Assembly: GCA_963846425.1 (NCBI GenBank)
Contig: CAWJVW010000002.1
Location: 265,667 to 329,666, forward strand
DNA from: an uncultured Acidobacteriota bacterium
GTDB taxonomy: Bacteria; Acidobacteriota; Vicinamibacteria; Vicinamibacterales; UBA2999
Length of the DNA stretch: 64,000 nucleotides
Direction of reading: 5' to 3'
Under the pieces are notes generated by a model. The model ran no database searches. It saw only the letters and a program-made list of their open reading frames with translations, and had not been told where the DNA came from. Below, piece after piece: positions 1,428 through 62,601 of this stretch (position 1 is the first letter of the stretch; every line of letters begins with the position of its first letter). Made by a program: the position numbers and the translations under genes.

Positions 1428-1504
1428 TGGTCGGGGCGATAGGATTTGAACCTACGACTTCTCGGTCCCGAACCGAGCGCTCTACCAAGCTGAGCCACGC
1501 CCCG
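1428..1504 (-). tRNA. tRNA-Pro (anticodon CGG), CCA encoded
   Basis: I folded the reverse complement by hand: CGGGGCG-TG-GCTC-AGCTTGGTA-GAGC-G-CTCGG-TTCGGGA-CCGAG-AAGTC-GTAGG-TTCAAAT-CCTAT-CGCCCCG-A-CCA. All four stems pair, a T-loop TTCAAAT is present, and the anticodon loop has CGG at 34-36. Confidence 0.93.
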
Positions 1505-7170: not shown

Positions 7171-7557
7171 TCACGGCACGTATGCAATACAGTCAATCTC
7201 GATTTTGAGGCCTTCTCCCGGCAGCCCAGCCGCCTGAATCGTCGTCCGCGCCGGACGGTGTTCGCCAAACATGCGCGAGTACACAGCGTTCATTTCCTGA
7301 AACTCACGCAAGTCGAGGAGGAACACGCCGCACCGCAGCACGTGCTGCAGACTCGATCCCGCGGCTTCGAGAATTGCCTCGACGTTCCGCAGGCATTGCT
7401 CGGTCTGCGCCGCGACGCTTGCTCCAGCCAGCTGACCGGTGGCGGGATCGGTTGCCCCCTGCCCGGAAACGAAGACGAGCCGATCGAATGCGACGCCCGG
7501 GGAGTATGGTCCGACGGGCTTGGGAAGGTTGGCAGCGTGAACAGGTCGATGAGTCAT
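7171..7557 (-). CDS. ridA: RidA/YjgF-family enamine/imine deaminase
   Basis: 128 aa with typical RidA length and sequence (PVGPYSPGV, VFVSGQ, IEIDCIA). Confidence 0.85.
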   Translation of the reverse strand: MTHRPVHAANLPKPVGPYSPGVAFDRLVFVSGQGATDPATGQLAGASVAAQTEQCLRNVEAILEAAGSSLQHVLRCGVFLLDLREFQEMNAVYSRMFGEHRPARTTIQAAGLPGEGLKIEIDCIAYVP

Positions 7558-7569
7558 GGTGAGATTGTA

Positions 7570-7706
7570 GAACTAAGAACGAAAAACGAAGAACGCGAAC
7601 CGGGAACGAGGAACAGGGAACGGAACTGCCGCAAACGCGTTGGTTGGTTCGGCGATGTCCGTTCCGTTCATTCGTTCTTCGTTCTTAGTTCTTCGTTCTT
7701 AGTTCG
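7570..7706. repeat. inverted pair of heptamer arrays: (GAACGAN)x8 at 7570-7626 and its reverse complement (NTCGTTC)x7 at 7657-7706
   Basis: I counted period 7 directly: gaactaa gaacgaa aaacgaa gaacgcg aaccggg aacgagg aacaggg aacggaa. The right arm reads ttcattcgttcttcgttcttagttcttcgttcttagttcg. It fills the 151-nt ridA/truA divergent spacer. Confidence 0.9.
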
Positions 7707-7708
7707 TT

Positions 7709-8527
7709 ATGATGCCCCCCGTGGCGCGGTTCAAGATCACGCTCGAGTATGCCGGTGGCCGTTACAGCGGCTGGCAGAAGCAGACCAATGCGCGGACGGT
7801 TCAGGGTGAAGTCGAGCGCGCGATTGCCGCAACCGTCGGCCATGGCGATTTCGAGTGTCAGGGCTCGGGCCGAACCGACGCAGGGGTCCATGCACTGATG
7901 CAGGTGGCCCACCTCGAGGTGCACTTGACCATGCCGCTGGAAAAGCTGCGTCGGCAGATCAACGACGAGCTGCCCTCGGACATCCATGTCCTCGCCATCA
8001 CGAAAGCGGTACACCGATTTCACGCCCGGCACGCCGCCGTCGGGCGGAGCTATCTCTATCAGGTTTCACGACGCCGGACGGCGTTCGCAAAGCCCTTCGT
8101 CTGGTGGGTCAAAGAGCCGCTCGACCTCGCGCTGATGACGGAGGCCGCCGCCCGGTTCTCCGGCATGCACGACTTCCGATCGTTCAGCGACGACGATCCG
8201 GACGACAAATCGACGGCAGTCCTTGTCGAGCAGGTGGCTCTCGCCGAAGAGGGCGATCTGATTCTGATTCGCGTCACCGGGTCGCACTTTCTGTGGAAGA
8301 TGGTCCGACGCATGGTCGGCGTGATCGTCGAGATCGGACGCGGGGGTCTGCCCGTTTCCGCGGTCGAGGATTTTCTCCGCAAGCCATCCGCGACTCCTGC
8401 GCGGCTGACGGCTCCCGCCTCGGGGCTGTTTCTCGAGCGAGTGTTTTACGAAGGCGACGACCGCGACTGGCCCCTGGTCTCCGCAATGCCGGTAGGCGTC
8501 GCGCCAGTGAAACGGCCAAGCAAGTAA
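7709..8527 (+). CDS. truA: tRNA pseudouridine(38-40) synthase TruA
   Basis: Catalytic motif GSGRTDAGVHA with typical TruA length and order. Confidence 0.9.
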   Translation: MMPPVARFKITLEYAGGRYSGWQKQTNARTVQGEVERAIAATVGHGDFECQGSGRTDAGVHALMQVAHLEVHLTMPLEKLRRQINDELPSDIHVLAITKAVHRFHARHAAVGRSYLYQVSRRRTAFAKPFVWWVKEPLDLALMTEAAARFSGMHDFRSFSDDDPDDKSTAVLVEQVALAEEGDLILIRVTGSHFLWKMVRRMVGVIVEIGRGGLPVSAVEDFLRKPSATPARLTAPASGLFLERVFYEGDDRDWPLVSAMPVGVAPVKRPSK

Positions 8528-19873: not shown

Positions 19874-20854
19874 ATGGACTTCAAGGATTATTACGCCACG
19901 CTTGGCGTCGCGAAGACGGCCTCCGACAAGGAAATCAAGCAGGCGTATCGCAAACTTGCGCGCAAGTATCACCCGGATGTGAATCCGGGAGACAAATCCG
20001 CTGAGGCTCGCTTCAAGGACATCAACGAAGCCAACGAGGTGCTCGGAGATCCCGAGAAGCGCAAGAAATACGACGAGCTCGGCGCGAACTGGCGCATGTA
20101 CGAACAAGCGCAAGCGCAAGGCGGCCGCCCAGGCAGTCCCTTCGGCGGTCAATGGACGTACGCGCCTGGCGGGGGCGGGTTCCGGCCGATGACCGAGGAC
20201 GACATGTCCGAGATGTTTGGCGGGGGCGACAGTCCGTTCTCGGATTTCTTCCGCACGTTTTTTGGCGGTGATGCAGAACCTTCGCGCGGGCGTCGGACAC
20301 GCACGCGCCCCCCACGCAATCGCAAGGGCCGTGACATCGAACACGAAATCGAGCTGGACCTCGCGAACGCTCTTCACGGATCGGTGCAGCGGCTGGGCAT
20401 CCAACATGACGGCGATGTGCGCAATGTCGAAGTGCGTATTCCAGCCGGTGTGATCGACGGTTCTCGCGTCCGGGTCGCTGGCGAAGGCGAACGCGGCACC
20501 GGTGCGCCAAGCGGCGACCTGTACCTGCGGATCAAGCTCCGACCTCATCCCCGCTTCGAGCGCAAAGGCCGGGATCTGTACACCAAAGTTCGCGTGCCAG
20601 TGACGACTGCCGTTCTTGGCGGTGAGGTCGAGGTACAAACCCTCTCCGGCAAATCACTGCGTCTCAAGGTTCCGCCGTTGACACAAAACGGCCAGGTCTT
20701 CCGACTACGCGGTCATGGGCTGCCGACGACCGGGAAGGACGGCACGGCCGGAGATTTGTATGCCACTGTAGACATTGCACTCCCACAGTCGTTGTCGGAT
20801 GAAGAGCGGATGCACTTCGAGGCGCTCGCGACGCTACAAAAGAGCGGGGAGTAA
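19874..20854 (+). CDS. cbpA: J-domain co-chaperone, CbpA/DnaJ class II type (no Zn-finger region)
   Basis: J domain with KYHPD (DYYATLGV...[11 protein letters not shown]), a G/F-rich linker and C-terminal DnaJ_C repeats. The Cys-rich domain is absent. ATG 19874 chosen. Confidence 0.85.
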
Positions 20855-20904
20855 GGCAAAAGGCCAAAGGCACAAGGCACAAGGCACAAGGCAAAAGGCG
20901 AAAG
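20853..20904. repeat. heptamer array (AAGGCAN)x7.5 filling the cbpA-clpB spacer
   Basis: aaggcaa aaggcca aaggcac aaggcac aaggcac aaggcaa aaggcga aag. It starts inside the cbpA stop codon and ends 3 nt before the clpB ATG. Confidence 0.92.
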
Positions 20905-26242: not shown

Positions 26243-26388
26243 GGTTCAGAGGTTCAGAGGTTCAGAGGTGCAGAGGTTCAGAGGTGCAGAGGTTCAGAGG
26301 TGCAGAGGTTCAGAGGTGCAGAGGTTCAGAGGTGCAGAGGTTCAGGGGTTCAGGGGTTCAGGGGTTCCACGGGTTCCACGGGTTCAGA
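26243..26388. repeat. octamer array, 18 units (GGTTCAGA, GGTGCAGA, GGTTCAGG, GGTTCCACG) with an alternating 16-nt super-repeat
   Basis: I counted unit by unit against the translated track ORF. The order is 3x ggttcaga, 4.5x (ggtgcaga ggttcaga), 3x ggttcagg, 2x ggttccacg, 1x ggttcaga. It lies in the PAP2/small-ORF divergent spacer. Confidence 0.95.
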
Positions 26389-30900: not shown

Positions 30901-31071
30901 GACGGTCCTACACCGAAACCTGATCCCGCCATGATGGACGGCATGATGGCCGGTGTGCTCGGTCCAGGCGACAAGAAGGCTGGCGAGACCAAAAAGCTAT
31001 TGCCGGTGACCGCCTTCGGCCGATACGTCAAGGTGCTCTTGAGCTCGAACGAGTTCTTGTTCGTGAACTGA
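27976..31071 (+). CDS. PSCyt1/DUF1549(PSCyt2)/DUF1553(PSD1) domain protein, exported
   Basis: Signal peptide, heme-binding CFMCH in the N-terminal PSCyt1-like domain, 1031 aa, followed by a DUF1501 gene (the canonical pair). Confidence 0.85.
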   Translation: MRAAIHARTLLAGAAALLMTTTMWAARETQAPASSPQPIEPPSAKAIEFFEANVRPVFVESCFMCHTKSEAGGLRVDSREALLKGGNSGPAVVPGNPDESYLLQAIRHAPNAPKMPKNGAKLSDAQIGALTQWIRDGAPWPAAAGAAAPAMATSREKVITDEQRAFWSFQPLRKVEAPAVSRADWATSSIDRFILARLEKDGLTPARAADKLTLIRRATLDLTGLPPTPDEIEAFEKDTSPDAFEKVVDRLLASPQYGEAWGRMWLDVARYAEDDPRSLDPMGRGYAPYPNAYLYRDWIVKAFNDDLPYEQFVKAQIAGDLLDEQTRARTLPALGLLGLGPWYYDNGAIEITKADERHDRVDVVSRGFLGLTVACARCHDHKYDPIPTKDYYSLAGVFLNTTYHEYPLAPKSEVDEFKGLEKKIEQKQKLLNEFLEVESRQLGETLALHTAKYLQAAWRVTGEPKDPMGRVADQEKLDYELFDRWVAFLAKPPRFYPYLKDWQEMIKRGGTADEAKKLADAFQTLLLEVMFAKKEIDEENEIIRAKALPGTKKKKPANLPSEFITNDDFCPGCGLELKSLETDQMQLWTDVFRRDLADGFDPAFAFDYIKPGVLNFRGWGLERQLSGDRRAHVEALRNDIKKLQSDLPAKYAYVHGVRDADKPAVMQVNVRGNPTRLGEEVPRRFLSVLSAAAPSPFEKGSGRLELAETIARHPLAARVIVNRVWKGHFGTGIVDTPSNFGFNGERPTHPELLEYLASSFVANGMSIKKLHREIMLSQVYQLSAESIATNAAKDSGNRLYWRASRRRMTAEQLRDSILSVSGALEAKMGGPAETLTPFYNRRTLYGKVSRYRIDPFLQLFDFPAPTISAEQRFATNVPLQRLFLMNSDFMQQQSELIARRVESEPDTRARIRKLYSVIFGRAPNDAELSAGLQYVTQEPLRSYEERKAEAAKKQLEDEKKAPGMKPQASGSPQTSDGPTPKPDPAMMDGMMAGVLGPGDKKAGETKKLLPVTAFGRYVKVLLSSNEFLFVN

Positions 31072-31112
31072 CCGGCAACCGGAGACCGGGGACTGGAGAC
31101 TGGCGACCGATA
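31071..31112. repeat. heptamer array (ACCGGNG)x6 filling the PSCyt-DUF1501 spacer
   Basis: accggca accggag accgggg actggag actggcg accgata. It runs from the last base of the stop codon to the first base of the next ATG. Confidence 0.88.
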
Positions 31113-39707: not shown

Positions 39708-39779
39708 CCCACGGCCCACGGTCCACGATTCATCACGCAGATCCTGGCGTTGTATCCGTAGGCCGTAGACCGTGGACCG
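39708..39779. repeat. inverted pair of heptamer arrays: (CCCACGG)x3 at 39708-39728 and (CCGTRGR)x3 at 39756-39779
   Basis: cccacgg cccacgg tccacga ... ccgtagg ccgtaga ccgtgga ccg. The right arm overlaps the GTG 39772 track start of the GT39 gene. Confidence 0.8.
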
Positions 39780-41505
39780 AATCCCGTGCCGGCCAGCGAA
39801 GTTCTGCGGCACGGTACAATCGTCGTCTGTGCGTCGTTCGACCATCCCTGTAGTACTGCTCGCCGCGCTCTCCTTCCTGACCGGGCTCGGCCGTGGTGCT
39901 ATCGCCGACACCGACGAAGCGTTCTATGCGGAGTCGGCCCGTGAAATGGTCGAGTCTGGTGACTGGCTCACGCCTCAGTTCAATTACGAACCGAGGTTCC
40001 AAAAGCCGGCGCTCTACTACTGGCTGACCGCTGCGGTCTACGTCGTGACCGGACCGAGTGAGTTTGGTGCGCGTCTGTGGTCGGGTCTGGCCGGTGTGGG
40101 GCTTGTGATCATCACGGCGGCGGTTGGCCGACGATGGCTTGACGAATCAGCGGGTCTGGTCGCAGGCGCGATTACTGCCACAGGTTTTGGCTACTTCGCG
40201 CTTGCGCGCATGTCGCTGCCCGACCTGCCACTGGCGTTCTGCATCACGCTCGCGATTTGGGCCGCGTTTGTCGCGGCACTCGAACGTGAGCGCCATCCCC
40301 GGCGATGGCTGCTGCTGGCGGCGGCGGCCGCGGCGCTGGGCTTTCTGATGAAAGGCCCGCTCGCAATCGTCATCCCCGCACTGGTCGTCCTGCCGATCCT
40401 GTTGATCGAGCGGCGCTCCTTCAACATCAAACCTGTCGACGTTCTGGTGGCCGCGATTGTGTTTCTCTCGGTGGCGTCACCCTGGTACATCGCCATGTGG
40501 CTGCGGCACGGAAGCGATTATCTCCAGGGCTTCTTCGTCGGCGACAACTTCGAGCGGTTCGCGACGTCACGCTTCAACGATCCGCGCCCCTGGTGGTTCT
40601 ACCTGCCGGTGCTGGCTGGCGGACTGCTGCCATGGACGCCGGTTGCGCTCGTCTGGGTCAGACCCGTGTCGGATTTCCTAAAGCGGCGACGTGATGTGGG
40701 AACTGTCGAACTCAGGTTGCTGCTCTGGACGGTGCTTCCGCTCGTCTTCTTCACGTTGTCGGTTGGCAAACAGCCGCGCTACGTGCTGCCGGTGCTCCCG
40801 CCGATGGCGTTGCTGCTCGCGAGCGCCATCATTGCCCGGACCAGTGAGTGGCATAGCCGGGGCGGCATGCGCGTCAGGCCGCGCCCCAATCTCACCGTGG
40901 TAGCGGGCTGTGTGCTTGCAGGACTGTTCCTAATCGCACTGGCCGTAATGCTGTACCGCGCGAAGCCGCTCTTCTTGAACGTTCCTGAATTAGCCACCCT
41001 CATCGTCGTCATTCTCACTGCAGGGGCGGGCACTGCCGTAGTCGCGGTCAGCTTGACGAGTGCGTGGCGTGCGGCGCCCGCCGTGCTCGCGCTCGGAGCG
41101 GCGGTGACCTTTGCCGCGCTGCCGTACGGCACCTTACCAGCCGCACACGTTTCTGCCGTCTCCGAGATGGCGCGTCTGGTCCGCGATGCGCGAACCGGCG
41201 GCGAGGCGATTGGCACTTACAAAGTCTTTGTTCGCAATCTGGTGTTCTACACCCGCACCAAGCACACCGATCTGATTCACGACGAGCACATCCTGGATTG
41301 GCTGGGCAAGAATCCACGCGCGCTGATCGTGTTGCCGACCTCCGAGGCCGAACGCCTTGAACGCGACCACGGCCTCAAACTGGATCGCGTGGCAGAGCGG
41401 CTGTACTTTGACGACGGCGGAATTCGCCCGCGGATGCTGCTCTGGCCAGATCCGCAGCGCGATCTGCAACGGGTCGCATTGGTAAGAGCCTTACGGGTTC
41501 AGTAG
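39772..41505 (+). CDS. GT39/ArnT-like glycosyltransferase (dolichyl-phosphate-mannose-protein mannosyltransferase family)
   Basis: Polytopic protein with the DTDEAFYAESAREMVESGDWLTPQFNYEPRFQKPALYYWL loop motif. The true start may be GTG 39829, because 39772 lies inside a repeat array. Confidence 0.8.
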   Translation: MDRIPCRPAKFCGTVQSSSVRRSTIPVVLLAALSFLTGLGRGAIADTDEAFYAESAREMVESGDWLTPQFNYEPRFQKPALYYWLTAAVYVVTGPSEFGARLWSGLAGVGLVIITAAVGRRWLDESAGLVAGAITATGFGYFALARMSLPDLPLAFCITLAIWAAFVAALERERHPRRWLLLAAAAAALGFLMKGPLAIVIPALVVLPILLIERRSFNIKPVDVLVAAIVFLSVASPWYIAMWLRHGSDYLQGFFVGDNFERFATSRFNDPRPWWFYLPVLAGGLLPWTPVALVWVRPVSDFLKRRRDVGTVELRLLLWTVLPLVFFTLSVGKQPRYVLPVLPPMALLLASAIIARTSEWHSRGGMRVRPRPNLTVVAGCVLAGLFLIALAVMLYRAKPLFLNVPELATLIVVILTAGAGTAVVAVSLTSAWRAAPAVLALGAAVTFAALPYGTLPAAHVSAVSEMARLVRDARTGGEAIGTYKVFVRNLVFYTRTKHTDLIHDEHILDWLGKNPRALIVLPTSEAERLERDHGLKLDRVAERLYFDDGGIRPRMLLWPDPQRDLQRVALVRALRVQ

Positions 41506-41633
41506 TTCAGAGGTTCAGAGGTTCAGGGGTTCGGTTCGAATGCCAAAGTTCGAGGATCTCTGTCGAGCCTCCTGAACCTTCTGAACCTCCTGAACCTCTG
41601 AACCTCTGAACCCCTGAACCTCTGAACCTCAGG
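41495..41633. repeat. inverted pair of GGTTCAGR octamer arrays (4.5 units at 41495-41535, 7 reverse-complement units at 41568-41628), candidate bidirectional terminator
   Basis: gggttcag tagttcag aggttcag aggttcag gggttcgg ... cctgaacc ttctgaacc tcctgaacc tctgaacc tctgaacc cctgaacc tctgaacc. It spans exactly stop codon to stop codon of two convergent genes. Confidence 0.92.
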
Positions 41634-43050
41634 CCTGCCGGTAATCCCAGAGCTTGCCGGGATTCAGAATCTGGTTCGGATCGAAGGCAAGCTTGACGCG
41701 CTTCATCAACGCGATCACATCGGGCGAGAGCTCGAGCCCCAGGTACGGGGCTTTTGCGAAGCCAATCCCGTGTTCGCCGCTGATGGATCCCTCCAGCGCG
41801 ACGACCCCTGCGAAGAGCGCGTGCTCCGCGGCCTTCGCACGCCGCATTTCGTCGGCGTTTGCGGGATCGCACATCACGTTGACGTGAATGTTGCCGTCTC
41901 CAGCGTGGCCGAAGCACGGAATCAGCAGACGGTATTCGCGGCGGAGTCGATCGACCAGATCGAACAACTGCGGGACGCGCCCGCGCGGGACGACCACGTC
42001 GTGGTTGATTTTGCGCGGAGCCAGCGCACGCAGCGCGAAGGAGAGCTCGCGGCGCGCCTCCCAGATGGCGTCACGCTCGGCTCCCGTGTTTGCCCGCTGA
42101 ACGGTGAGAGCGCCGGCGTGCCGACAAGCGCTGAGCACATGCGCCGACTCGTCCTCGACGCCACCGGCGTTGCCATCGACCTCGACGATGAGCAAAGCGC
42201 CGGTCTCCCTGGGAGCGAGGATTCGGCCGATGTGCTTCTCGACCGCGGACAGCGATTCGCGGTCAACGAGCTCGATGGTGGCGGGCAGCACACGTGCTGC
42301 CAACAACAGTGAAACGGCCGCGACGGCTCCACCCACATCGGCAAATGTCGCCTGCATGGTCGACTGAACCAGGGGCTTGGGCACCAGCCGCAGGGTAATT
42401 TCCGTGATGATTGCCAGCGTTCCTTCCGAACCGACGAGCAGCTGCGTGAGGTCATAGCCGACGACGTTCTTCACCGCCTTCGATCCCGTCCGGACGATCT
42501 CTCCCGTCGGAAGTACCGCTTCGAGCGCCAGGACGTACCGCTTGGTCGTGCCGTACTTCACCGCGCGTGGTCCGCCGGCGCATTCCGCGACGTTGCCGCC
42601 GATCGATGACTGGCGCAGGCTTGCGGGGTCTGGCGGATAGAACAGGCCCCGGCGCTCGACAGCGTCTTGCAAGTCTCCGGTGATGACATTCGGCTGTGTA
42701 ACGACGAGCAGGTTCTCGTCATCGATTTCGATGATGCGGTCGAGCCGTTCCATGGAGAGCACGACTCCGCCTCGAACGGGGACCGCTCCGCCCGTGTAGC
42801 CGGTACCTGCGCCGCGAACGACGAGTGGCACGCGATGCTCGTTGCACGTACGGGCGATGTCCGCAATTTCGGTCGTGCGTGCGGGACGCAGCACGAGGTC
42901 GGCCGCATGACCGATCTGAAGCGCGTCGCGCCCGTAGTCGGTGAGCGCCTCGGCGTCAGTCAGGACGTGTGCGGGCCCAACAATGGAGATAAACGCGCGA
43001 ACAAGGTCTGGCGTCACAAACGTCTGGTCGGCAGGGTGGGCGGTCCGCAA
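41629..43050 (-). CDS. FAD-linked oxidase (GlcD/D-lactate dehydrogenase family)
   Basis: FAD_binding_4 N-domain (PLVVRGAGTGYTGGAVP) and C-terminal GEHGIG motif. 473 aa. Confidence 0.85.
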   Translation of the reverse strand: MRTAHPADQTFVTPDLVRAFISIVGPAHVLTDAEALTDYGRDALQIGHAADLVLRPARTTEIADIARTCNEHRVPLVVRGAGTGYTGGAVPVRGGVVLSMERLDRIIEIDDENLLVVTQPNVITGDLQDAVERRGLFYPPDPASLRQSSIGGNVAECAGGPRAVKYGTTKRYVLALEAVLPTGEIVRTGSKAVKNVVGYDLTQLLVGSEGTLAIITEITLRLVPKPLVQSTMQATFADVGGAVAAVSLLLAARVLPATIELVDRESLSAVEKHIGRILAPRETGALLIVEVDGNAGGVEDESAHVLSACRHAGALTVQRANTGAERDAIWEARRELSFALRALAPRKINHDVVVPRGRVPQLFDLVDRLRREYRLLIPCFGHAGDGNIHVNVMCDPANADEMRRAKAAEHALFAGVVALEGSISGEHGIGFAKAPYLGLELSPDVIALMKRVKLAFDPNQILNPGKLWDYRQA

Positions 43051-45383: not shown

Positions 45384-45423
45384 TCGGAGACGGAGTCCGA
45401 CCGGAGACCGGAGACCGGAGACC
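45384..45423. repeat. heptamer array of the ACCGGAG family (3 perfect CCGGAGA units at 45401-45421 plus degenerate units)
   Basis: tcggaga cggagt ccga ccggaga ccggaga ccggaga cc, abutting the recG stop codon (45424-45426). Confidence 0.85.
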
Positions 45424-47526
45424 TCATCCAACGGTAATCAGGCCAAATTGCCGCTGCCACACATTCTGGACGTAACGCTGCTCGGCATCGGTGAGCGTGC
45501 GCGCATCCACGCGTTTGCGCGCCTCGTTGAAAGCCAACTCGAGCAGCTCCACATCGCGGGTCAGGTCGCCCGCACGCAGCTGCGGTAGTCCATGCTGGCG
45601 GGTGCCAAAAAAATCCCCGGGACCTCGAAGTTGCAGGTCGCGTTCCGCAATCACAAATCCGTCGTTGGTGTCAGCCATGGCCTTGAGCCGCTCGCGCGCC
45701 TCTTCGGACCAGGGCGCCTGATACAGCAGCACACAGACCGATTCGCTGCTGCCTCGCCCGACCCGCCCGCGCAGCTGATGAAGCTGCGACAGGCCAAATC
45801 GCTCGGCATGTTCGACAACCATGATCGTGGCGTTTGGTACGTCAACACCGACCTCAACCACGGTCGTGGCGACCAGGATGTCCAGCCTGCCTGCCGAAAA
45901 CTCGCGCATCACCGAGGTCTTGTCGTCGGCCTTCATGCGACCGTGTACGAGTGCCACTGTCAGCTCCGGAAAGACGTCGCGCGCGAGGTGTTCAGCCATC
46001 GCAGTTGCGGCCTTGAGGTCGACTTTTTCGGACTCTTCGACGAGCGGATAGACCACATACGCCTGCCGACCCGACCGAATCTCCTGTCGCACCAGATCGT
46101 AAACATCCTCTCGACGCGAGTCGGGCTTGACGAGCGTGCGTACGGGCCTTCGCCCCGGAGGCAGCCCGCGAATGACTGAGATTTCCATGTCACCGCATTC
46201 CGTTAACGCCAGCGTCCGCGGAATCGGGGTCGCTGTCATGACCAGGACGTCAGGGTTGAGGCCCTTCCCCGCAAGAGTCGCGCGTTGCAGAACCCCGAAA
46301 CGATGCTGCTCGTCGACAACCGCCAGGGCGAGCGCGCGGAATTTGACGTGCTCCTGCACGAGTGCGTGGGTGCCGACGACGAGATGAACGTCGCCGCGTT
46401 CAATAGCCGGCAACAGCGTCCGCCGTTCTGCTGGCGTGATTCTGCCGGTCAGCAGCGCGACACGGTAACGTGTGGCGGCCAGCCAGGTTGAAAGCGTTGC
46501 CAGATGTTGTTCGGCGAGAATTTCCGTCGGCGCCATGAACGCCACCTGAAATCCGTTCTCCATGGCGACAATCGCCGCCAGCAAGGCAACGATGGTCTTA
46601 CCGGCACCGACGTCGCCTTGCAGGAGTCGCTGCATCGGCCACGGCTTCTGCATGTCGGCGACGATTTCGGCGAGCGCCTGTCGTTGTCCTTCCGTCAGCT
46701 TGAACGGAAGCACTGCCCGCGCCGCCTGCCGCACCCGGTCGTCAACCGAGCACACCAGCGCCTTGCGCACCTCGGCGTTCTGCTGACGACGGAGGGCCAG
46801 CCCCGTTTGAAAAACGAAGAAGTCCTCGAAAATCAACCGCCGCTGGGCGAGAGTGCGGAAAGCATTGAGTGCCTCCACCGAGGTGCTGGCATCAGGAAAA
46901 TGCGCTTGCACGAGCGCCTCGCGACGTGCCGGCCATCGCTCTCGCTCCCGCACATCAGCGGGGACGGGATCGAAGAGGACCTCCGGAAGTTGTTCGAGCG
47001 CTTGCCACACGAAGCGCCGCTGCATGTTCGTCGTGACACTGCCCGTCCGCTCGTAGACGGGTACGATGCGTCCCGTGTGCAGGGTCGAAGGCTCATCGTT
47101 TTCGGTGTCTCGGATGATCTCGAATTCCGGGTCCGTCAGCTGCAAGCCTCGTGATCCCCAGTGTTCAGCCTTGCCGTACAACACGACGTGCTGGTGTGGG
47201 CGAATCACATCTTTCAAAAAGGCCTGATTGGGCCACACCGCTTGGATCTGGCCGCTTGGGTCCTGCAGCAGCGCTGTGAAGAGGCGAAACCCCGCGCGCC
47301 GGGTCGTCTGCAGGCTTGCATGCAGCACTTCCCCACTGACGGCGACGGTTTGGCCCGGCCGGATCGAAACGATCGGCTGCAGCCGGCTGCGGTCTTCATA
47401 GCGAAGTGGAAATCGAAAGAGCAGATCTTCGACCGTTACAAGGCCCGCCTTCTTCAAATCCATGGCCTTGCGCGGGCCGACGCCCTTTAAAAACTGCAGC
47501 GGGAGTTGCAGGACGTCATCGTCCAC
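45424..47526 (-). CDS. recG: ATP-dependent DNA helicase RecG
   Basis: Wedge/OB N-domain, helicase motifs GDVGAGKT and VDEQHRFG, 700 aa, GTG start. Confidence 0.95.
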   Translation of the reverse strand: MDDDVLQLPLQFLKGVGPRKAMDLKKAGLVTVEDLLFRFPLRYEDRSRLQPIVSIRPGQTVAVSGEVLHASLQTTRRAGFRLFTALLQDPSGQIQAVWPNQAFLKDVIRPHQHVVLYGKAEHWGSRGLQLTDPEFEIIRDTENDEPSTLHTGRIVPVYERTGSVTTNMQRRFVWQALEQLPEVLFDPVPADVRERERWPARREALVQAHFPDASTSVEALNAFRTLAQRRLIFEDFFVFQTGLALRRQQNAEVRKALVCSVDDRVRQAARAVLPFKLTEGQRQALAEIVADMQKPWPMQRLLQGDVGAGKTIVALLAAIVAMENGFQVAFMAPTEILAEQHLATLSTWLAATRYRVALLTGRITPAERRTLLPAIERGDVHLVVGTHALVQEHVKFRALALAVVDEQHRFGVLQRATLAGKGLNPDVLVMTATPIPRTLALTECGDMEISVIRGLPPGRRPVRTLVKPDSRREDVYDLVRQEIRSGRQAYVVYPLVEESEKVDLKAATAMAEHLARDVFPELTVALVHGRMKADDKTSVMREFSAGRLDILVATTVVEVGVDVPNATIMVVEHAERFGLSQLHQLRGRVGRGSSESVCVLLYQAPWSEEARERLKAMADTNDGFVIAERDLQLRGPGDFFGTRQHGLPQLRAGDLTRDVELLELAFNEARKRVDARTLTDAEQRYVQNVWQRQFGLITVG

Positions 47527-47551
47527 ACAGCGATGTTACTGCACCAAAATA

Positions 47552-47604
47552 GGTTCAGAGGTTCAGCAGTTCAGAGGTTCAGTAGTTCAGGGGTTCCGTC
47601 AGGG
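47552..47604. repeat. octamer array (GGTTCAGN)x6
   Basis: ggttcaga ggttcagc agttcaga ggttcagt agttcagg ggttccgt caggg, 25 nt upstream of the recG start on the opposite strand. Confidence 0.9.
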
Positions 47605-51559: not shown

Positions 51560-51623
51560 GACATCTTCTAAGGCCCGGCGAAAACTTGCTTTAATTGTCA
51601 CTACTATGACCTTAGAAGATGTC
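51560..51623 (+). promoter_or_regulatory. 14-bp perfect inverted repeat GACATCTTCTAAGG (51560-51573) / CCTTAGAAGATGTC (51610-51623) enclosing the nth start codon
   Basis: The right arm contains ATG 51619-51621. The 36-nt spacer is AT-richer than its surroundings. Confidence 0.6.
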
Positions 51624-52380
51624 TAAGGGAATCGTGAAGTCGCGTCAGGTCGCGCGCCGCGTTTTCGCCGCGCTCGAGCGGCATTATCCAGACGCCGACA
51701 CCGAGCTGAATTACCGCACGCCGTTCGAGTTGCTGGTAGCCACGATCTTGTCGGCCCAGTCCACGGATCAGCGCGTGAATCTCGTGACACCTGATTTGTT
51801 CGCGCGTTACCCCGATGCCGATCGAATGGCGTGTGCCAATCCCGAAGATCTGGAGCCGATCATCATGTCCACCGGCTTCTTTCGTCAGAAGTCGCGCTCC
51901 CTCGTGGGGATGGCAGCGGCTCTCGTCGAGCATCACGCGGGACAGGTGCCCGCGGACATGGACGCGCTCGTCAAGCTGCCTGGAGTTGGACGAAAAACAG
52001 CCAACGTCGTCCTGGGTCATGCGCTCGGTGTTCCCGGCTTTCCGGTCGATCGGCACGTCTTGCGCGTGACCAATCGTCTCGGGCTGGTCCACAGTGAAGA
52101 CCCCGAGAAAGTCGAATCGGCGCTATGCGCGTACTTGTCGCCAGAGCGTTGGACGAAAGCCTCCGACACGCTGATCCTTCACGGACGCCGCATTTGTCGT
52201 CCGACCCCGCTTTGCGAGCGATGTAACGCGCGGAAGGATTGTGACTTCTATCTGCGCGGAGGAATGGTGGTCCGGGCAGGAACTGGAAAGGCACAAGGTA
52301 CAAGGCAGAAGGCAGGCACAAGGCAGAAGGCACAAACCACGAGGCAGAAGGCACCAGGCAAGAGGCCCAGCAAGCGATGA
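51619..52380 (+). CDS. nth: endonuclease III (Nth) with a repeat-encoded basic C-terminal tail
   Basis: HhH motif LPGVGRKTANVVL and [4Fe-4S] motif CRPTPLCERCNARKDC. The last ~35 codons ([33 protein letters not shown]) are the translated AAGGCAN array. Confidence 0.9.
   Translation: MSKGIVKSRQVARRVFAALERHYPDADTELNYRTPFELLVATILSAQSTDQRVNLVTPDLFARYPDADRMACANPEDLEPIIMSTGFFRQKSRSLVGMAAALVEHHAGQVPADMDALVKLPGVGRKTANVVLGHALGVPGFPVDRHVLRVTNRLGLVHSEDPEKVESALCAYLSPERWTKASDTLILHGRRICRPTPLCERCNARKDCDFYLRGGMVVRAGTGKAQGTRQKAGTRQKAQTTRQKAPGKRPSKR
52288..52368. repeat. heptamer array (AAGGCAN)x11, lying inside the 3' end of the nth ORF
   Basis: aaggcac aaggtac aaggcag aaggcag gcac aaggcag aaggcac aaaccac gaggcag aaggcac caggcaa gaggccc. 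Confidence 0.9.
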
Positions 52381-62467: not shown

Positions 62468-62483
62468 AATCCCTCCCAAACCT

Positions 62484-62587
62484 GAAGGCAAAGGCAGAAG
62501 ACGAAAGGCAAAATTCAACGCTCGCGACAGGGCCGACGCTTTAGGTTTTGCCTTCTGCCTTCTGCCTTCTGCCTTGTACCCTATGCC
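62484..62587. repeat. inverted pair of AAGGCAN heptamer arrays (62484-62513 and reverse complement 62546-62587)
   Basis: gaaggca aaggcag aagacga aaggcaa aa ... ttttgcc ttctgcc ttctgcc ttctgcc ttgtacc ctatgcc, between the JAMM stop and the next gene's RBS. Confidence 0.9.
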
Positions 62588-62601
62588 CGGCTTGCTTGCC
62601 C

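Follow-up and report, generated by a model that had tools for sequence, protein, structure and literature searches.

Inverted octamer arrays between convergent GT39 and oxidase genes of an uncultured Vicinamibacterales bacterium: a probable copy of a lineage-wide class of intergenic repeat hairpins

The spacer between the convergent genes of a GT39/PMT-family glycosyltransferase and an FAD-linked oxidase in an uncultured Acidobacteriota bacterium (Vicinamibacterales) is filled, from stop codon to stop codon, by two inverted arrays of an octameric unit. On balance we favour the view that this element belongs to a lineage-wide class of intergenic hairpins built from 7-8-nt simple sequence repeats (SSRs), which would grow by slippage within the bounds set by the open reading frames and whose REP-like effect would be a by-product. 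The window referred to below is the whole stretch of DNA analysed, 64,000 nucleotides in length.

Structure of the junction element

The genes and the parts of the element are as follows (window coordinates).

39772–41505, + strand: GT39/PMT-family glycosyltransferase gene (ORF list; Pfam PMT_2, 5e-20, and PMT, 8e-19)
41495–41532, + strand: left arm, G-form units of GGTTCAGA, unit 2 being the variant TAGTTCAG
41503–41505, + strand: GT39 stop codon TAG, made by the variant unit, inside unit 2 of the left arm
41533–41571, unstranded: centre of 39 nt with degenerate units (GGTTCGA, AGTTCGAG), partly self-paired and part of the apical hairpin
41572–41630, − strand: right arm, CTGAACCT on the + strand and thus GGTTCAG-type when read on the − strand; the arm's final base falls within the oxidase stop codon
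41629–43050, − strand: FAD-linked oxidase (GlcD-like) gene (ORF list; Pfam FAD_binding_4 and FAD-oxidase_C)

Both arms together fill the 123-nt spacer from the GT39 stop to the oxidase stop; the stop-to-stop arrangement, already described in an earlier note on this DNA, was confirmed by the letters, by TRF and by the ORF ends. The left arm reads GGGTTCAG TAGTTCAG AGGTTCAG AGGTTCAG GGGTTC and corresponds to ~4.6 units of GGTTCAGA (TRF: period 8, 4.6 copies), a minor correction to the three units counted previously. The right arm reads CTGAACCT TCTGAACCT CCTGAACC TCTGAACC TCTGAACC CCTGAACC TCTGAACC T and corresponds to ~7.1 units of CTGAACCT (TRF: period 8, 7.1 copies), in agreement with the seven units given before. 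The TRF match rate of both arms was 86–90%. The window contains 33 occurrences of GGTTCAG, where 7.1 would be expected.

The G-form unit carries no stop codon in any frame and the C-form unit carries TGA in all three. The final four codons of GT39, CGG GTT CAG TAG (R V Q stop; 41494–41505), are repeat units, and without the TAG the frame would stay open for 32 more codons, until the right arm supplies a TGA (41599–41601). The proposal that the repeat itself supplies these codons was upheld by a comparison of C-termini, in which the tails of array-free GT39 orthologues are unrelated past the conserved ...VLVR; the original C-terminus has been overwritten. The oxidase, whose stop codon TGA is the complement of 41629–41631, ends in ...WDYRQA, similar to the C-termini of its orthologues.

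Folding and slipped registers

The arms are complementary in several registers spaced 8 nt apart; complementarity is 89% over 37 nt, 94% over 32 nt and 100% over 23 nt. Folding of 41480–41645 as RNA gave −89.3 kcal/mol (z −8.9) for the + strand and −89.8 kcal/mol (z −8.8) for the − strand, energies matched by 0 of 200 shuffles; as DNA the element folds at −46.6 kcal/mol (z −9.6). Eight base pairs into the stem, an internal loop of 2 nt contains the GT39 TAG. In the Boltzmann ensemble 85–91% of the population adopts the main register and 9–15% a register slipped by one unit. Forcing registers 0, −8 and −16 resulted in −89.3, −87.4 and −84.3 kcal/mol, slipped registers costing 2–5 kcal/mol relative to the best fold. 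The long hairpin predicted in the earlier note for either transcript, its multiple pairing registers and the slipped alternatives are all borne out by these calculations.

No U-tract was found 3' of the stem on either strand, by reading of the sequence and by a terminator-consensus scan, as had also been stated before; the stem is followed by TCAGGCCTGCC on the + strand and by GTAAGGCTCTT on the − strand. A canonical terminator was rejected on this ground and for want of a consensus match at the element.

The sequence GGTTCGAAT within the hairpin centre looks like a tRNA T-loop, a likeness that we regard as coincidence. ARAGORN detected no tRNA-like element at the hairpin, the one tRNA match of the window lying elsewhere, and a search of Rfam 15 gave no match at gathering score, returning only sub-threshold matches to miRNA-precursor-like hairpins. 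With nothing at threshold in either search, a known RNA family or tRNA-like identity was discarded.

The same junction in relatives

The earlier note had interpreted the element as an atypical bidirectional terminator or 3'-end stabiliser, i.e. a device selected for ending or protecting both convergent mRNAs without a U-tract. The hairpin, its registers and the missing U-tract, on which that interpretation was built, stand; a device dedicated to this gene pair we consider unlikely. In its favour are the great stability of the stem on both strands and its placement exactly at both stop codons, but the absence of a U-tract counts against it, and so does the comparison of relatives. In ~28 of the 37 relatives that share the junction, the GT39/oxidase spacing is −41 to +40 nt and hairpin-free, so that in most of them the junction is too short for any hairpin; in L002 (78% identical) the overlap of the two genes amounts to 40 nt. 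Only part of the lineage gained the element.

In L203, whose GT39 is 81% identical, an orthologous hairpin is present with the same GTT CAG TAG stop and degenerate arms (−73.8 / −87.2 kcal/mol). Position, length and folding energy of the hairpin are thus kept between two genomes whose flanking proteins are ~19% different, and this retention, which could reflect selection for the structure, speaks for the terminator reading. So do L026 and L079, where the corresponding convergent spacer is taken up by inverted arrays that are independent of this one. Arrays of other units were found at this junction in L202, L204, L205, L026, L079 and L014.

The source is a long-read metagenome contig, and the short-read contig of the relative L202 breaks inside such an array, as might be expected from an assembly or sequencing artefact at a low-complexity site. 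Because an orthologous element is present in the independent short-read assembly of L203, this reading was rejected; similar pairs also occur in MEGAHIT, SPAdes and long-read assemblies of many studies, and we attach practically no weight to an artefact.

Further arrays in the window

Arrays of period 7–8 number 13 in the window; 30 shuffles gave 0.5 on average. Three spacers contain GGTTCAG arrays and two contain GACCGGA arrays, while AAGGCA arrays occupy 4 sites spread over 3 spacers. Four further members of the class are as follows.

7568–7705, unstranded: inverted AGAACGA / CGTTCTT arrays filling the divergent, start-to-start ridA/truA spacer (7558–7708)
26243–26385, + strand: array of ~16 units of GGTTCAGA alternating with GGTGCAGA, in a divergent spacer
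47551–47596, + strand: GGTTCAG array of 5.8 units including the TAGTTCAG variant, 24 nt upstream of the recG start
62485–62575, unstranded: inverted pair AAGGCA / TGCCTTC in a co-directional spacer, folding at −45 / −54 kcal/mol (z ~−4)

The arrays of the ridA/truA spacer fold at −65.6 / −63.4 kcal/mol (z −6.4 / −8.0). As at the GT39 stop, arrays intrude on other ORF ends, for example the Nth-like tail (52288–52360) and the recG stop (45424).

None of the other convergent spacers of the window contains a strong hairpin (z ~−2.2 to +0.6). A general hairpin requirement at convergent junctions was discarded for this reason, and the observation also tells against a dedicated terminator. Canonical hairpin-plus-U terminators show no excess in the window, occurring at shuffle level, and unusual 3'-end signals may hence operate. 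Taken with the Rho gene encoded nearby, this makes trimming to a stable hairpin plausible, a point on the side of the terminator.

The repeat class across related genomes

A census was made of 80 related loci and the window, covering ~1.1 Mb of related genomes. It returned 107 intergenic arrays versus 19 in coding cores, and of 100 array edges directed at the 3' end of a gene, 38 are no more than 10 nt from the stop. Adjacent related arrays are inverted in 78 cases and direct in 23. Throughout this ~1.1 Mb, 7-8-nt arrays and inverted pairs are distributed over convergent, divergent and tandem spacers at background proportions (inverted pairs: 20 tandem, 9 convergent, 6 divergent), and no enrichment at convergent spacers was found. 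The same architecture in divergent and co-directional spacers weighs against a device for this gene pair. Nor was a sense-strand stability bias (G-U vs C-A) seen in co-directional spacers, where the hairpins are equally stable sense and antisense; with a mean difference of −0.8 kcal/mol and 11 versus 9 cases, there is no RNA-level strand-bias signal.

In all pairs the GGTTCAG array comes first and the CTGAACC array second (18 to 0). This configuration is strand-symmetric and helix thermodynamics does not account for it. Several loci of one lake metagenome share composite nested hairpins that agree in their centre (GGTT-GG/CC-AACC) and in the junction between inner and outer parts (TGAACCAA|CCCC). 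Arrays of GGTTCAGA were present on at least 120 metagenome contigs of 34–70% GC, a figure that stands without a control-octamer baseline. In the literature searched we found no reports of such arrays in Acidobacteriota (Vicinamibacterales).

Slippage alone is insufficient for the recurrence of units at many loci and for the 18-to-0 order. A rather improbable proposal is that the repeat hairpins of Vicinamibacterales (and of other mid/low-GC lineages) arise from an undescribed polar process, either a tandem-repeat-armed mobile hairpin or 3'-end-directed synthesis or fold-back repair. Such a process would explain the one-way order of GGTTCAG units, the few unit families common to many loci and genomes, the recurring composite nested hairpins with identical centres and the filling of spacers up to the ORF borders.

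Its two forms can be considered separately. If the element were a non-autonomous mobile hairpin (REPIN- or MITE-like), a transposase acting in trans would copy entire hairpins into new intergenic positions, and slippage would afterwards make their arms diverge. The repetition of unit families at many loci, the fixed array configuration, the lake-metagenome loci with identical centre and junction, and the different unit families of close relatives at the same junction are all compatible with this, as is the definition of REPINs as inverted REP doublets that fold into hairpins (PMC3116915, PMC3337134). However, there is no target-site duplication, the GGTAA on both sides lying in conserved codons that are also present in L203; arm length and centre vary greatly, and the arms are plain tandem units rather than REP-type imperfect palindromes. 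A MITE was rejected, since the combination of terminal inverted repeats and a target-site duplication is lacking and no direct repeat flanks the element. No transposase was identified within these 64 kb, a scope too small to be informative for a genome of 3.3 Mb or more. We rate the mobile hairpin as rather improbable.

Alternatively, the arrays may be the footprint of polar DNA synthesis or repair, in which the G-form unit is repeatedly added to 3' ends, leaving (unit)n followed by (reverse-complement unit)m; the addition might take place, for example, on either side of a break between genes or through strand-specific fold-back synthesis. The strand-symmetric 18-to-0 order beyond helix thermodynamics, the unequal copy numbers of the arms (4.6 vs 7.1), and arrays that adjoin coding borders and erode non-essential gene ends would fit, and Xanthomonas pairs are reported to be always convergent too (PMC4692102). 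On the other hand, several unit families in one genome would not be expected from a single templated enzyme, the constant hairpin centre at several loci is at odds with random end joining, we know of no candidate enzyme and the explanation is purely inferential, so that we hold it to be highly improbable.

Comparison with known systems

The closest precedent is provided by the GGGAATC arrays of Xanthomonas, which together with the GGGGA(C/T)T arrays of Nostoc/Anabaena form intergenic heptamer arrays (Rehm et al., 2015; PMC4692102); the excess of long-unit SSRs was first noted by Mrazek et al. (2007), as cited in PMC4692102. In Xanthomonas 89–93% of the arrays are intergenic, lying near or over stop codons, and each genome contains 70–75 convergent inverted GGGAATC pairs (PMC4692102). 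The arrays described here share with those of Xanthomonas and Nostoc the tandem 7-8-nt units, the overwhelmingly intergenic location, the use of one unit at many loci, the position near or over stop codons and the frequent inverted (convergent) pairs capable of forming stem-loops. In both, length and sequence vary between close relatives and roles are only putative. The junction element belongs to this class, which is marked by head-to-tail units of 6-9 nt in at least three copies, by its octamers in 4.6 and 7.1 copies, their recurrence at many intergenic loci far above chance, the proximity to stop codons and the inverted pairing. It is a member of the general class and not of the G4 subclass, as GGG G-quadruplex tracts are missing: the GGTTCAGA octamer contains only GG runs and is therefore not a GGG quadruplex motif. 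Further differences are the octamer unit, the several unrelated unit families in one genome, the Acidobacteriota host (Vicinamibacterales) and pairs that often fill the entire spacer.

Like the REP/BIME/REPIN elements of Proteobacteria, the hairpins are extragenic, dispersed, inverted doublets, often between convergent genes, with halves in fixed relative orientation, and by analogy they could plausibly form a 3'-exonuclease barrier. REP elements reportedly stabilise upstream mRNA and influence translation near stop codons (Newbury, 1987; Liang and Deutscher, 2015). The extragenic inverted hairpin doublet is common to both, but the 20-40-nt imperfect palindrome with 5' GTAG is not found here, GTAG occurring only in the variant unit; the arms consist instead of head-to-tail 7-8-nt units of variable copy number with no conserved spacer. 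We know of no RAYT gene for tandem-unit repeat hairpins, in contrast to REP/REPIN.

Like intrinsic or bidirectional terminators, the element places a stable stem-loop immediately behind the stops of two converging genes. It differs in that the stem measures ~45–50 bp instead of 5–20 bp and is not the short GC-rich stem-loop with U-tract, no A-tract or U-tract flanks it, the stop codons are inside the stem or at its base, and the class is not limited to 3' ends.

TAACTGA direct repeats occur in Beggiatoaceae and cyanobacteria (MacGregor, 2015; PMC4679880). These and the cyanobacterial STRR heptamers likewise form abundant intergenic arrays adjoining ORF ends, and how deep an array can reach into an ORF is limited by the stop codons that its unit contains. 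Those arrays, unlike the ones described here, are almost all direct (one indirect repeat was reported), are mostly oriented towards start codons and have 2–6 copies.

Proposed origin and consequences

Our preferred reading, that the element is a copy of the intergenic SSR hairpin class, can be set out as follows. In Vicinamibacterales the arrays very often exist as inverted pairs, with a few unit families common to many loci. One such copy would have been gained in a spacer once ~0–20 nt long, no later than the common ancestor with the relative whose GT39 is 81% identical. Arm length would then shift by replication slippage; the arms would remain complementary owing to their common origin, with template switching within the hairpin as a probable second cause. 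The stop-to-stop extent suggests that array growth ends only where either ORF would be damaged. On the GT39 side, the last few codons were presumably dispensable and could be overwritten, the variant unit with its TAG providing the stop.

As both genes transcribe into the element, each mRNA would carry the same stem-loop of ~−89 kcal/mol, with its start at or close to the stop codon of the gene concerned. A REP-like effect would be the most likely result, with 3'-to-5' exonucleases blocked after Rho-dependent or run-off termination, and the stem-loop may partly obstruct read-through polymerases and terminating ribosomes. By analogy with REP elements such an effect on the mRNA 3' ends is plausible, and we regard it as a by-product rather than the cause of the element's existence.

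Significance

A striking junction sequence can in this manner be explained without a special regulatory device, and the junction shows how a gene can have its final codons and its stop rewritten by repeats. Vicinamibacterales are abundant in soil and rarely cultured. From the ~1.1 Mb examined, their intergenic DNA appears to be heavily colonised by 7-8-nt repeat hairpins. The arrays are likely to break short-read assemblies and can lead gene callers astray, with ORF tails extended and start codons misplaced. Through them, promoters as well as 5' and 3' ends also come to contain hairpins of great stability, both as RNA and as DNA. That the pairs are configured strictly one way, and that unit families are shared, could hint at a new mechanism of repeat genesis or mobility.

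Structure of the element

The inverted octamer arrays between the convergent GT39 and oxidase genes are arranged as follows.

The element and its flanking genes (window positions)
39772–41505, + strand: GT39 ORF, a PMT_2/PMT (GT39-type) glycosyltransferase; TAG stop at 41503–41505
From 41495: left arm, units GGGTTCAG TAGTTCAG AGGTTCAG AGGTTCAG GGGTTC; period 8, 4.6 copies (Tandem Repeats Finder)
Between the arms: centre, 39 nt
To 41630: right arm, units CTGAACCT TCTGAACCT CCTGAACC TCTGAACC TCTGAACC CCTGAACC TCTGAACC T; period 8, 7.1 copies (Tandem Repeats Finder)
41629–43050, − strand: oxidase ORF, a FAD_binding_4 + FAD-oxidase_C protein; stop at 41629–41631

The sequence of 41495–41630 is as the earlier note described it, with inverted arrays reaching from stop to stop, and both stop codons that it had placed match the ORF positions. 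Set against the array coordinates, these positions show that the 123-nt spacer is wholly taken up by arrays; the left arm overlaps 11 nt of the GT39 3′ end. Several registers, at steps of 8 nt, bring the arms into complementarity (e.g. 37 nt at 89%, 23 nt at 100%). The long hairpin proposed for either transcript was borne out by folding energies computed on both strands: RNA of 41480–41645 folds at −89.3 kcal/mol (+ strand) and −89.8 kcal/mol (− strand), with z-scores of −8.9 and −8.8 and no equal among 200 shuffles, and the DNA fold of the element is −46.6 kcal/mol (z −9.6). The alternative slipped registers were recovered as well, the main register accounting for 85–91% and a one-unit slipped register for 9–15% of the Boltzmann ensemble; forced registers 0, −8 and −16 gave −89.3, −87.4 and −84.3 kcal/mol. 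Also as noted earlier, both strands lack a U-tract after the stem; the terminator scan had no match at the element.

Neither Rfam nor ARAGORN detected a known RNA family or tRNA at the element. The stretch GGTTCGAAT in the hairpin centre (41528–41545) matches the tRNA T-arm/T-loop consensus, which is probably a coincidence; neither program found a tRNA-like gene there. The sole RNA gene detected in the window is a tRNA-Pro (CGG) at 1428–1504, minus strand.

Comparison with orthologous C-termini upheld the claim that the repeat supplies the last GT39 codons (RVQ-stop). The conserved part of GT39 stops at ...VLVR, beyond which the tails of orthologues are unrelated and 1–15 residues long; the repeat encodes part of the tail in the window, ALRVQ-stop. 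For the oxidase, the tail (...WDYRQA) is similar to that of orthologues. None of the three frames of the GGTTCAGA form contains a stop codon, and its complement carries TGA in all three; were the TAG variant unit absent, the GT39 reading frame would extend by 32 codons and end at a right-arm TGA.

History of the GT39/oxidase junction

A GT39 gene followed by a convergent oxidase gene is a conserved arrangement among relatives. Since the spacer is only −41 to +40 nt in about 28 of the 37 relatives sharing it, the hairpin at the junction is a gain. In three relatives (L002, which is 78% identical and has an overlap of 40 nt, L007 and L015) the two ORFs overlap by 40–41 nt, and both C-terminal tails are coded on opposite strands of one DNA stretch.

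The nearest relatives show persistence as well as turnover. The orthologous element is present in L203 (GT39 81% identical; an independent short-read assembly), with a 119-nt spacer, the same GTT CAG TAG ending, more degenerate GGTTCAG arms and a hairpin of −73.8/−87.2 kcal/mol (z about −8.5). In L202 (88%) an AGAACGA/AGAACTA array stands there instead and encodes the GT39 tail, the contig breaking within the array; in L204 (78%) CGTTCTT units enter the oxidase end, and L205 (73%) has inverted arrays containing GATC. The more distant L026 (CGGTGAA/CACCGTG) and L079 (GTTCACG/TGAACCC) carry independent inverted pairs that take up the convergent spacer and leave no more than a few bases before either stop, and five loci (L014, L022, L025, L050, L069) have other repeats directly 3′ of the GT39 stop. 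Tandem units of about 38 nt (...tatgtagtgtccggctttagccggaccgcgatcggctc...) lie 3′ of this stop in L009 (7684–7840), each copy with one small REP-like hairpin.

The repeat class in the window and in relatives

The window, part of a 3.33-Mb metagenome contig, holds 13 tandem arrays of period 7–8 with at least 3 copies, against a mean of 0.5 and a maximum of 2 in 30 dinucleotide-preserving shuffles.

Arrays of the class in the window
26243–26385 (about 16 units), 41495–41630 and 47551–47596: GGTTCAGA arrays
20853–20904, 52288–52360 and 62485–62512: AAGGCA(A/C) arrays; inverted TGCCTTC partner at 62549–62575
31070–31109 and 45399–45423: GACCGGA arrays
7568–7705: AGAACGA/CGTTCTT inverted pair
7171–7557 (− strand), ridA, and 7709–8527 (+ strand), truA: genes flanking the AGAACGA.../...CGTTCTT heptamer arrays

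The divergent ridA/truA spacer (7558–7708) is array-filled from start codon to start codon, its pair folding to −65.6/−63.4 kcal/mol (z −6.4/−8.0); the co-directional dnaJ-clpB spacer and the convergent spacer bounded by the recG stop are likewise filled, and the genes flanking these spacers are real. The pairs at 7560–7708 and 62470–62590 also form long hairpins (z −3.9 to −8.0). The unit family of the ridA/truA spacer is the one that stands in for GGTTCAG at the GT39 junction of L202 and L204. The GACCGGA array from 45399 (×3.6) ends exactly at the recG stop (complement of 45424–45426), and the same unit fills a 40-nt spacer at 31072–31111. The longest array, 26243–26385, lies in a divergent spacer adjoining a PAP2-family gene; its roughly 16 octamers are GGTTCAGA and GGTGCAGA in regular alternation (16-nt super-period), followed by the variants GGTTCAGG and GGGTTCCAC. 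An endonuclease III-like ORF (51619–52380) reads on past its Fe-S motif through the AAGGCA(C) array at 52288–52360, gaining a tail of some 35 residues rich in Lys, Arg and Gln; its native C-terminus seems to have been lengthened or replaced by the array.

The arrays were counted in the window and 80 loci orthologous for the GT39 gene, all from Acidobacteriota and mostly labelled Vicinamibacterales (about 1.1 Mb in total). Here, 107 arrays were intergenic and 19 within ORF cores. Spacer types (−− 41, −+ 28, +− 21, ++ 17) track the background (257, 153, 164, 147), so there is no preference for convergent spacers. A stop codon lies within 10 nt of 38 of the 100 array edges facing a gene 3′ end; extension as far as the stop codon is thus characteristic of the class. 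Where neighbouring arrays had related units, they were inverted rather than direct in about 24 cases versus 3 in relatives; for all unit families in the window and L002–L205, the relatives and metagenome contigs compared with it, the counts were 78 and 23.

Predicted effect on 3′ ends

Canonical hairpin-plus-U sites occur at shuffle level in the 60 kb scanned (18, 17 and 21 found versus 15.7, 15.3 and 16.0 expected), and almost all of these sites lie inside genes; dependence of the organism on classical intrinsic terminators is therefore improbable. It encodes Rho, and there is scope for hairpins to set 3′ ends following Rho-dependent termination. By analogy with REP elements, the hairpin would very probably influence the 3′ ends of the two mRNAs and, with both stop codons inside the stem or at its foot, may hinder terminating ribosomes.

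The other convergent spacers of the window contain no strong hairpins (z −2.2 to +0.6). In the array census the class showed no preference for 3′ ends, inverted pairs in contigs of GC ≥0.58 occupying 20 co-directional, 9 convergent and 6 divergent spacers, as in the background. Co-directional spacers showed no stability bias towards the transcribed strand (mean difference −0.8 kcal/mol, 11 versus 9 cases). The earlier reading as an atypical bidirectional terminator or stabiliser is supported in part. The structure is real; the absence of 3′-end preference and of sense-strand bias speaks against a dedicated device. We conclude that the predicted 3′-end effect follows from the site at which one copy of the class arrived and expanded.

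Relation to known repeats

The closest published case is that of the GGGAATC heptamers of Xanthomonas and GGGGA(C/T)T of Nostoc (PMC4692102). Those arrays use one unit genome-wide, are strongly biased to adjoin or overlap stop codons and are mostly transcribed; in Xanthomonas 89–93% are intergenic, with 70–75 pairs per genome "with convergent orientation" (PMC4692102). In contrast, the octamer unit of the element is incapable of forming a GGG quadruplex, and several unit families occur side by side per genome in this lineage. The TAACTGA repeats of Beggiatoaceae (PMC4679880) are related, as are satellites derived from heptamers in several bacteria (PMC6749651). REPINs, too, are extragenic inverted doublets that fold into hairpins, but each half is a defined palindromic REP that RAYTs mobilise (PMC3116915, PMC3337134). 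In the papers searched we found no account of such arrays from Acidobacteriota or Vicinamibacterales; the element is thus of a known type in a new lineage.

Order, spread and nesting of the repeat hairpins

Among arrays with at least 3 GTTCA/TGAAC cores each and no more than 150 nt apart (window and L002–L205), a GTTCA-core array precedes a TGAAC-core array in 18 cases and the reverse order occurs in none. This order is its own reverse complement and either order would give the same helix; neither strand choice nor thermodynamics explains the bias. A metagenome scan for three GGTTCAGA units, the one octamer scanned, returned at least 120 contigs of GC 34–70% (L082–L201); the unit is accordingly not confined to Acidobacteriota. 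Among the matches listed, inverted partners are found mostly in high-GC contigs. Two contigs, L114 and L129, have long telomere-like arrays of TTTAGGG type beside the GGTTCAGA arrays; both are probably of eukaryotic origin.

High-GC contigs of one lake metagenome (Ga0194127) carry composite nested hairpins at several loci.

Nested-hairpin sites in Ga0194127 contigs
L102: 1–130 and 2290–2410
L112: 680–820
L132: 1–190
L144: 620–730 and 5330–5440
L160: 2245–2360

Their outer arms are of GGGGCTC/GGGGAT type and their inner arms GGTTCAG; the centre (GGTT-GG-AACC or its complement) is near-constant at 5 of the 7 sites, and the right junction TGAACCAA|CCCC is common to three. This shared centre and junction suggest that whole hairpins are copied. 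One-way order, metagenome spread and nesting together keep in play a mobile-hairpin or polar-synthesis mechanism, which we consider, both taken jointly, improbable. The significance of the element lies in phenomena of the class and not in the GT39/oxidase locus.
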